Below, piece by piece: positions 54,460-55,233 of a stretch of 64,000 bases of DNA; position 1 is the stretch's first letter, and each line of letters begins with the position of its first letter. The stretch spans positions 44,698 to 108,697 of the forward strand of contig CAVXNI010000009.1 of NCBI GenBank assembly GCA_963763155.1, in the 5' to 3' direction. The translations under genes were made by a program, and so were the position numbers. The DNA is from an uncultured Acidobacteriota bacterium (GTDB lineage: Bacteria; Acidobacteriota; Terriglobia; Terriglobales; Acidobacteriaceae). Below the pieces are notes generated by a model. It had not been told where the DNA came from, searched no databases, and was given only the letters and a program-made list of their open reading frames with translations.

Positions 54460-55233
54460 CTAGAGCCCGACCGCGCGGTTCCAATCCGCAATGTACATAT
54501 AGACTCTCTGGAACTCAGATGGTAGAAGCATGCGGTTAACCATGGCACCTTTTTGCGGGATCGTCTCAACTGAAGGCGGAATAGTGGCTTTTAATTGCTG
54601 CTCGGTTTCCTTTTTCTTTGCTTCAGCCTCGCCGACCTCAGACACATCCGCCAGACTCAGCAGTGCGTAGAAGGTACTGGCCATAAGCTTGCTCGTTATA
54701 GGCGTGGCATTGAAAGCACTCCTAAATTTTCCCTCTATCAGTTCACGGTCGGCCTCTGTTGGTCGCGCAGTGATCGTGAACAGGTCGCTGTATGCTTCTC
54801 TCACCGCTTGACCCATGACCCGGGCTGATCTCGCAGTATTTCGGTATTCGTGGTACCGGGCGGTTGGGGCTCCATCCTGTGAGAGAAATCCTAGCAGGCT
54901 GCTGAAAATCTCCGTTTCGAGCCGTTTTTGGGAAGGGCACGAGTTCACTCGTGCCGTTAAGCCCATTAAAATCAGCTGCGCTTTAGCGCCTGAGGTGCGC
55001 TCTTTCCTGGCAAAAGGAGTTTTTCAGCAGCCTGCTAGGGACTTCAGCAAGGGGATGACGGCGTTGAAATTTGACGATGCGAAGCCCAAATCCTTGAGGT
55101 ACTGCCGACTGAACTTGTCGGGAGCTTGTCCATCAGCGATCTTCCTGAAGAACGCCGGTAGCTGTCCATAGACCTGGACATAGGAGTTAATCAAAGCCAT
55201 GTGACCTCCGTCAGTCGCATTGGATTTAAACAT
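54460..55233 (-). pseudogene. DUF5343-like protein gene, split by a 140-bp MITE
   Basis: The 5' part encodes MALINSYVQVYGQLPAFFRKIADGQAPDKFSRQYLKDLGFASSNFNAVIPLLKSL. The 3' part encodes GFLSQDGAPTARYHEYRN... Removing 54895-55034 plus one CTAG restores one 209-codon frame. Confidence 0.75.
54895..55034. mobile_element. MITE (non-autonomous IS1182/IS5-type derivative) with a CTAG target-site duplication
   Basis: Terminal inverted repeats CAGGCTGCTGAAAA (54895-54908) and TTTTCAGCAGCCTG (55021-55034), flanked by CTAG at 54891-54894 and 55035-55038. The termini resemble the ends of the IS at 11328-12955. Confidence 0.8.

Follow-up and report, generated by a model that had tools for sequence, protein, structure and literature searches.

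A 64,000-nucleotide (nt) stretch of DNA from an uncultured member of the Acidobacteriaceae (contig CAVXNI010000009.1, positions 44,698 to 108,697, assembly GCA_963763155.1; hereafter the window) carries at 54895-55034 a 140-bp element which, by all features checked, is a MITE (miniature inverted-repeat transposable element), and which its termini and target assign to the IS5 type. The element interrupts the DUF5343 gene of a candidate defence cassette, PDC-M34, at a duplicated CTAG, and to judge from the sequences compared here is one copy of a previously undescribed MITE family of ~140 bp in Acidobacteria. We hold with good confidence that this MITE with IS5-group ends was inserted at CTAG in a PDC-M34A gene, which was probably already decaying, by an IS5-type transposase acting in trans.

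Anatomy of the MITE

Direct reading gives CAGGCTGCTGAAAA as the 5' end of the element and TTTTCAGCAGCCTG as its 3' end, a perfect inverted repeat (14/14) with CTAG on both sides, as a preliminary description of the window had proposed. Followed inwards, the terminal inverted repeats (TIRs) match at 21/23 positions and at 21/25 over 25, so that the long match reported in that description stands with its figure corrected from about 22 of 25 to 21. A repeat search returned still longer arms around the MITE, of 28 nt at 93%, because the palindromic CTAG flanks extend the inverted repeat. The parts of the element and its relatives in the window are as follows.

54895-55034 (+): complete MITE copy, 140 bp; family profile 127 bits, E=1.6e-38, model positions 1-140
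54895-54917 (+): left TIR, CAGGCTGCTGAAAATCTCCGTTT; 18/19 match to the IS5-type terminus CAGGCTGCTGAAAAACTCC
55012-55034 (-): right TIR, reverse complement CAGGCTGCTGAAAAACTCCTTTT; 19/19 nt identical to the ends of ~1.3-kb IS5-family elements
54891-54894: target-site duplication, left copy, CTAG; read directly, and the commonest flank of the MITE terminus elsewhere
55035-55038: target-site duplication, right copy, CTAG; read directly, and found in 19/25 short elements with a perfect 4-bp duplication
54936-54955 (+): hairpin 1, GGCACGAG-TTCA-CTCGTGCC (= GGCACGAGTTCACTCGTGCC); compensatory changes in two stem pairs, alignment columns 49/56 and 50/55
54978-54989 (+): hairpin 2, GCGC-TTTA-GCGC; compensatory changes, alignment columns 94/105 and 95/104
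49072-49154 (+): double-hairpin core of the MITE family without TIRs; nhmmer E=6.4e-8, model positions 31-112
55311-55346 (-): hairpin-1 module in the groEL 3' region; nhmmer E=7.2e-7 and inverted-repeat search

The element has no coding capacity resembling any protein, and the open reading frames (ORFs) that cross its 140 bp are read-through artefacts. Its length (below ~500 bp), TIRs, target duplication, copies at unrelated loci and ends in common with an autonomous insertion sequence (IS) are the features that define a MITE. It folds much better than shuffled versions of itself (z = -6.5), and an Rfam scan matched no family at the MITE or its hairpins. RNAalifold, run on the family alignment, shows that each of the two hairpin stems has compensatory changes and that the termini co-vary with one another at one position (column pair 9/146). 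A role for the hairpins, if there is one, is something that we infer rather than observe. No resemblance of the MITE interior to any IS examined was seen; a short motif, GGGAAGGG, common to the MITE and the right-end region of an IS1182-family copy in the window (described below) was seen by eye only. On these comparisons the interior is probably not derived from the transposase gene; it consists of a conserved module of two hairpins, found elsewhere in TIR-less form as well, which would therefore make the element a 'type II' MITE, having only its ends in common with an autonomous IS.

The family profile has three matches in the 64-kb window, namely the full copy, the core at 49072-49154 and the module at 55311-55346, the last adjoining a degenerate terminus-like sequence (CAGGCTCCTCAAA) at 55299-55311, and the earlier observation that the MITE hairpins recur in the window is thereby borne out. 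TIR-less cores also occur in the metagenome loci L130, L137 and L138 (the prefix L marks collected loci) and on two related IMG/VR contigs classed as viral (L153:13119-13145 and L154:3978-4004). These two cores and one chance match within a coding region were the yield of two viral-contig scans, in which no MITE was found on a phage. On their own, the TIR-less cores may behave differently from TIR-bounded copies. Just upstream of the TIR-less core in the window, at 49030-49090, lie 2-3 tandem copies of a ~16-nt unit (CAGATCGGRAAGGGNA); a similar duplication, of TTTTGGGAAGGGCACGAC, is present in L070.

Termini in common with IS5-type elements

Among the matches listed there are 117 distinct occurrences of the 19-nt terminus, preceded by YTAR in 94/117 and by CTAG in 67/117; among the short elements, 25 have a perfect 4-bp duplication, and in 19 of these it is CTAG. 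Searching from this terminus for a partner end recovered two size classes, one of 120-270 bp from several phyla and one of 1284-1307 bp, the latter with duplications of CTAG, TTAG or TTAA and encoding proteins of ~360-370 aa. The hosts of these ~1.3-kb partner elements are soil bacteria, and the 19-nt terminus is conserved across at least 6 phyla; an Acidobacteriaceae metagenome-assembled genome (MAG) contains one of the partner elements, L050, which is 1284 bp long and flanked on each side by CTAG. The transposase of the elements with the MITE terminus has DUF772 and DDE_Tnp_1 domains, and that of L016 scores 285.5 bits against the 'IS5 family' model NF033581 (cut-off 140) and 202 bits, below the cut-off of 270, against NF033551 (IS1182). 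By tblastn all full-length elements among the collected loci encode a transposase of this IS5 type, with 50-100% identity to that of L016, while the identity between their transposases and the IS1182 protein of the window is ~30%. Plasmid records likewise label the transposases of ~1.3-kb elements as IS5 family, and the known target duplications of IS5 are 4 bp long and fall at YTAR (PMC5009759).

The preliminary description had suggested looking for an intact transposase with matching ends, and the ~1.3-kb IS5-type elements (NF033581), which carry the exact 19-nt terminus, supply one. Since the full-length elements found with this terminus are all of IS5 type, the parent or mobiliser would be an IS5-type element, not the IS1182 copy of the window. 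Of the earlier classification of the MITE as an IS1182/IS5-type derivative, the IS5 part is upheld by the 19/19 ends, NF033581 and YTAR, and parentage by the IS1182 copy in the window is not. No IS5_4-type transposase was found in the 64-kb window, where the sole tblastn match is the IS1182 copy (32% identity); with no IS5-type transposase there, the mobiliser would have to act in trans, which agrees with the earlier claim that the window holds no working transposase for the MITE.

A MITE family in Acidobacteria

The terminus pattern CAGGCTGCTGAAAAWCTCC matched at least 119 stretches in GTDB genomes, and a 29-nt hairpin-1 pattern matched 16 metagenome loci. From these we recovered at least 12 distinct short elements with both termini and the hairpin, 138-141 bp long save for one of 192 bp with an insert. 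The 12 TIR-bounded relatives occupy unrelated sites, mostly with CTAG flanks, in Acidobacteriaceae/Terriglobia MAGs or in soil and peat metagenomes. Among the matches listed L131 comes closest, at 89% identity to the window MITE; it is intergenic and has a CTAG at either end, and the remaining relatives have identities of 59-81%. All follow one family plan: a ~19-nt terminus, a spacer that varies, TTTTGGGAAGGGCACGnnTTnAnnCGTGCCGTTAAG (hairpin 1), a second spacer, a hairpin 2 of the GCGCTTTAGCGC type, a variable stretch and the second terminus. The family alignment A2, of 11 aligned relatives with conserved TIRs, was used to build the nhmmer profile, which finds at least 15 full-length copies in the collected loci together with many partial ones, often several per 8-kb locus. 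In the literature searched, nothing specific turned up on the terminus sequence or on Acidobacterial MITEs of IS5 type with CTAG.

Some family members have inserted into other copies, precisely within the hairpin-1 loop of 4 nt (GGCACGnnTTCAnnCGTGCC), and there TTCA/TGAA is duplicated, not CTAG. The loop-nested copies are:

L125:5923-6159 and 6289-6426
L133:9260-9399 (same as L140)
L012:5-145
L046:1394-1532

Removal of a loop-nested insert restores hairpin 1, and GGCACGnnTTnA also precedes many of the single ends found in Acidobacteriaceae loci. We suggest tentatively, and think it rather unlikely, that the MITEs are composites in which IS5-type ends have come to enclose an independently spreading double-hairpin repeat, and that the family targets its own TTCA loop. 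If this were true, an IS5-family transposase would be choosing its targets by structure, and nested repeat arrays could be built in this way.

The interrupted DUF5343 gene

Deletion of 54895-55038 leaves a 209-aa minus-strand ORF that reads ..AVIPLLKSL/GFLSQDG.. across the join. A single match to PF17278 (DUF5343; E=4e-41, residues 17-151) spans the join, and in an alignment with ten homologues (~205-206 aa) LLKSLGFL is invariant and no indel occurs at this point, so the precise interruption of a DUF5343-like gene, as first described, is confirmed. The restored ORF consists of the following segments.

55035-55200 (-): 5' fragment of DUF5343 (PDC-M34A), codons 1-55 from the conserved start MALINSY; homologue alignment and profiles
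54538-54894 (-): 3' fragment of DUF5343, to ~codon 173; tblastn with the L001 DUF5343 protein, which covers 55200-54538
54460-54537 (-): last 26 codons of HEPN_Swt1 (PDC-M34B), fused in frame; tblastn with the L001 and L002 HEPN proteins, 96-100% over residues 155-180

At homologous loci the DUF5343 gene is followed by a 179-aa HEPN_Swt1 gene, and the pair constitutes genes A and B of the PADLOC candidate system PDC-M34, of which intact A-B pairs are present in L001-L007. Comparison with L001 at the DNA level reveals a ~600-bp deletion in the window that joins DUF5343 codon ~173 to HEPN codon 155 (junction ~54537/54538). In keeping with this, PADLOC profiles match the restored ORF at residues 1-156 for PDC-M34A and at residues 172-197 only for PDC-M34B (PDLC04592), and the HEPN-derived tail is NRMLLPSEFQRVYMYIADWNRAVGL. 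We therefore rejected the restored 209-aa ORF as an intact gene, its last 26 codons being the HEPN_Swt1 C-terminus: excision of the MITE does rejoin the reading frame, as had been claimed, and what it restores is a deletion chimera with HEPN_Swt1, not a single intact gene. The window has no PDC-M34 with both genes intact, since the MITE splits gene A and the deletion has taken away its end together with the greater part of gene B. The locus is a dead remnant, and the cassette thus has two lesions, this deletion and the MITE insertion.

At the insertion site homologous genes read TCACTCGGA or TCGTTAGGA, and an empty site in this region downstream of groEL would read AAGTCCCTAGGATTT. The codons there (S-L-G) are TCA-CTC-GGA in L001, TCG-TTA-GGA in L002 and TCC-CTA-GGA in the window, which makes CTAG at this site a feature of the window lineage alone. 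CTAG occurs at 56 sites in the window against 235 expected from base composition, ~4-fold rarer, which leaves few targets for the MITE family.

Over its 173 codons the split gene is free of any other stop or frameshift, and its nonsynonymous divergence (dN) from intact homologues, 0.06-0.09, compares with 0.086 between intact copies. Synonymous divergence (dS) between DUF5343 copies is saturated, so neither a dN/dS ratio nor a date can be given; the comparison nonetheless suggests that the gene was inactivated late when set against the time over which the DUF5343 genes have diverged. A literature search on DUF5343 found nothing specific.

A 30-bp terminator-like palindrome (AAAAGCCCCGCTC..GAGCGGGGCCTTT) is present in two copies (93%) at 54222-54251 and 55258-55287, bracketing the PDC-M34 cassette, and homology with L001 begins ~40 bp upstream of the start codon and extends as far as a hairpin (54412-54451). 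From the bracketing palindromes and the extent of this homology, the cassette may have moved as a unit.

The IS1182-family copy at 11.4-13.0 kb

The preliminary description had related the termini of the MITE to those of a degenerate IS elsewhere in the window, which we find to comprise two features.

11413-12955 (+): dead IS1182-family element with two frameshifts, the left inverted repeat deleted and the right one 4 nt short; protein models and intact relatives
11328-11412 (+): remnant resembling a MITE or IS5 left end, ~85 bp; CTAG then CAGGCTGCT, a 6-nt gap and CGTTTCGGGC; outside the IS1182 consensus

The fragments of the IS encode DUF772, DDE_Tnp_1 and DDE_Tnp_1_6 domains and score 279 bits against NF033551 (cut-off 270). 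Its frameshifts, near 11555-11562 and near 12634 by comparison with an intact 464-aa relative (P0121, 95% identity), and the lost left inverted repeat agree with the earlier view that the sole transposase copy in the window is dead. Intact IS1182 relatives, with transposases 90-95% identical, have the inverted repeat CAGGCGTGGGTGTTGAAAAAGTC, which is perfect at both ends of L151 and found at the right ends of L143, L147 and L149; the right ends of the relatives read ...CACCCACGCCTG followed by CTAA, TTAA or ATAA. That of the window copy, ...TTTTTCAACCAGCCTG followed by CTAA, is this repeat minus 4 nt, and looks closer to the MITE end because of the loss. On the left the window copy is without an inverted repeat, ~20 nt are missing between 11424 and 11425, and homology to other copies (L143, L147-L151) starts only at ~11413 (AATGAGTGTAAC).

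The 11328-11412 sequence is missing from those other copies, and lies between the stop codon of the ORF at 9885-11327 and the IS1182 copy, whose left side is truncated. CTAG and CAGGCTGCT together make a 13-nt exact match to the MITE plus its flank, and only 1/2000 shuffles reach the score with which this end aligns to the MITE. It had been taken for the left end of the IS, equal to the MITE left end minus 6-7 nt and abutting a CTAG; the likeness holds, but as homology to relatives starts at ~11413 it is not part of the IS. The 11328-11412 sequence is best read as the decayed end of another MITE or IS5-type element adjoining the IS1182 copy. A single IS of 11328-12955 with MITE-like ends was considered and rejected, since relatives share sequence only from ~11413 and have a different inverted repeat.

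Independent IS1182 copies (L143, L147, L149, L150, L151 and that of the window, at 11413-11424 and 12956-12970) share ~15-20 nt beyond the inverted repeat, AATGAGTGTAAT.. on the left and CTAACAACAGTTGAC on the right; in L143 and L149 GCCTG is found at each side. The element may extend beyond these repeats to its true ends, or it may prefer a specific palindromic target.

Alternative readings and proposed mechanism

Could the IS1182 lineage of the dead 11.3-13.0-kb copy have given rise to the MITE by deletion, and mobilised it? This lineage, of which thousands of homologues exist at 90-95% identity, is very abundant; its members end in ...GCCTG followed by CTAA, TTAA or ATAA and show a CAGGC tip and a TGAAAAA core as in the MITE terminus; and the right end of the window IS (reverse complement CAGGCTGGTTGAAAAAGTCC, then TTAG) aligns to the MITE end better than 2000/2000 shuffles, so the resemblance pointed out in the preliminary description holds pairwise (0/2000 reach the score). 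It does not hold for the family profile, which matches the right terminus only weakly (model positions 1-28, E=9.3) and nothing else in the IS, nor the supposed left end, and so links neither of the two ends to the MITE. CAGGCGTGGGTGTTGAAAAAGTC is separated from the MITE terminus by a 5-nt indel and substitutions, the window copy being closer only through its 4-nt loss, and the 'left end' at 11328 is outside the IS1182 region common to other copies. Furthermore, no full-length element with the exact terminus among the matches listed has an IS1182-type transposase, and no similarity of the MITE interior to the IS1182 element was seen. We consider descent from this lineage improbable; with MITE ends that differ from the CAGGCGTGGGTGTTGAAAAAGTC of intact relatives, the window IS1182 copy is probably not the MITE's parent, though a distant relationship of IS1182 and IS5-type ends is plausible from their sequences. 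A different origin, in which the double-hairpin core is a repeat like the repetitive extragenic palindromes (REPs), spread by a Y1/RAYT transposase or by recombination and only secondarily furnished with IS5-like ends, would fit the TIR-less cores at 49072-49154 and in L130, L137, L138, L153 and L154, the co-varying hairpin stems, and the Y1_Tnp gene that adjoins the DUF5343 cassette in L001. We nevertheless regard it as very unlikely, as the window copy has complete TIRs and the 4-bp CTAG duplication that IS5-type elements make, complete copies are a constant 138-141 bp between TIRs, TIR positions co-vary between the ends (column pair 9/146), no Y1 transposase is detectable in the window, and the element does not qualify as a REP or a bacterial interspersed mosaic element (BIME).

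The age of the insertion bears on whether the family is still mobile. That the MITE is an old and immobile relic, of a family now inactive in this lineage and wrongly called 'recently active', is a possibility we take seriously while holding it somewhat doubtful. It would accord with the identities to other copies (89% for the closest found among the matches listed, 59-81% for the rest), with a window that holds one complete copy and two remnants, TIR-less or truncated, and no matching transposase, and with the second lesion of the host cassette, its ~600-bp deletion. Set against this are the perfect target duplication and 14-bp termini, the 173 codons of the split gene without a further stop or frameshift, and its dN of 0.06-0.09, which is not above the 0.086 of intact copies.

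In the reading that we prefer, insertion of the MITE by an IS5-type enzyme in trans, a DDE transposase of the IS5 group, with its gene at another place in the genome, would bind both CAGGCTGCTGAAAA(A/T)CTCC ends and insert the MITE at a CTAG (YTAR) site, where repair of the 4-bp staggered cut would duplicate CTAG. The target would have been the codons TCC-CTA-GGA of the DUF5343 gene, with the protein truncated after residue 66 of the 209-aa ORF. Several points weigh against this proposal. We infer the transposition itself, together with the mobilising enzyme and the timing of the insertion; the 64-kb window has no second complete MITE copy (nor does the terminal 14-mer recur in it at 0-1 mismatch) and no autonomous IS5-type copy was seen there; and among the matches listed in the genome and metagenome scans, both of which required exact pattern matches, no near-identical MITE copy was found, the best being 89% identical. 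Moreover, the IS1182 inverted repeat and the MITE end have the CAGGC tip and the TGAAAAA core in common, given which an IS1182-type enzyme may have cross-mobilised the MITE.

Other features of the window

Hairpin repeats of other families, of the CCCCACCCTTCGCGATTTTCGAAGGGTGGGC and CCCCACACAACGAAAACCGCGTTGTGTGGG types, are present in several copies and both orientations at 52019-52906, 54284-54451 and 58955-59151, and L001 has one repeat of the CCCCACCCTTCGCGATTTTCGAAGGGTGGGC/CCCCACACAACGAAAACCGCGTTGTGTGGG class conserved downstream of its cassette. The Rfam scan identified a fluoride riboswitch (60.8 bits) at 5158-5222 (-) and tRNA genes at 41856-41929 (+) and 52431-52502 (+).

Implications

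For annotation, the three ORFs around 54.46-55.23 kb are fragments of one dead PDC-M34 cassette, and the 140 bp between them are mobile DNA. For the study of mobile elements, the comparison defines an undescribed ~140-bp Acidobacterial MITE family with a likely IS5-type partner, and the terminus together with CTAG provides a simple marker for insertions in soil metagenomes. The insertion is a further example of a transposable element disabling a candidate defence gene; such events are ordinary, and this one leaves the view of MITE mechanism unchanged.

Comparison with known systems

IS5-family MITEs that have only their TIRs in common with their IS have been reported from Porphyromonas gingivalis and Neisseria meningitidis, the named cases being BrickBuilt, MITE464 and MITE700 (with ISPg1, ISPg3 and ISPg4) and ATR (with ISNme1) (PMC4596501). 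Like the window MITE, these type II MITEs are short and non-coding, with TIRs identical or nearly so to those of IS5-family elements (in P. gingivalis and N. meningitidis, co-occurring IS), an interior unrelated to the transposase gene, and presumed movement in trans. The window MITE differs from them in its terminus CAGGCTGCTGAAAAACTCC, its phylum (Acidobacteriota), its strict 4-bp CTAG/YTAR duplication and its interior, a conserved double hairpin that also exists TIR-less.

Escherichia coli IS5 and the IS5 group resemble the elements with the MITE terminus in their 4-bp YTAR duplication (PMC5009759) and their DUF772 and DDE_Tnp_1 domains, while the MITE itself has no transposase and its partner elements are ~1.3 kb long and belong to soil bacteria. 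The IS1182 family has in common with the MITE and IS5-type ends the CAGGC tip, the TGAAAAA core and a YTAR-like right flank; its inverted repeat is 5 nt longer (CAGGCGTGGGTGTTGAAAAAGTC), its transposase of 464 aa has an extra DDE_Tnp_1_6 region, and no IS1182-type element with the exact ends of the MITE was found among the matches listed. At the level of sequence the terminus of E. coli IS5 (GGAAGGTGCGAA..) is not known to be related to that of the MITE. MITEs of the Correia, RUP and ERIC types are also TIR-bounded, ~100-160 bp long and hairpin-forming, and lie in or near genes whose expression they sometimes alter; compared with the window MITE they have other parent IS families, other targets (TA for Correia) and other sequences.

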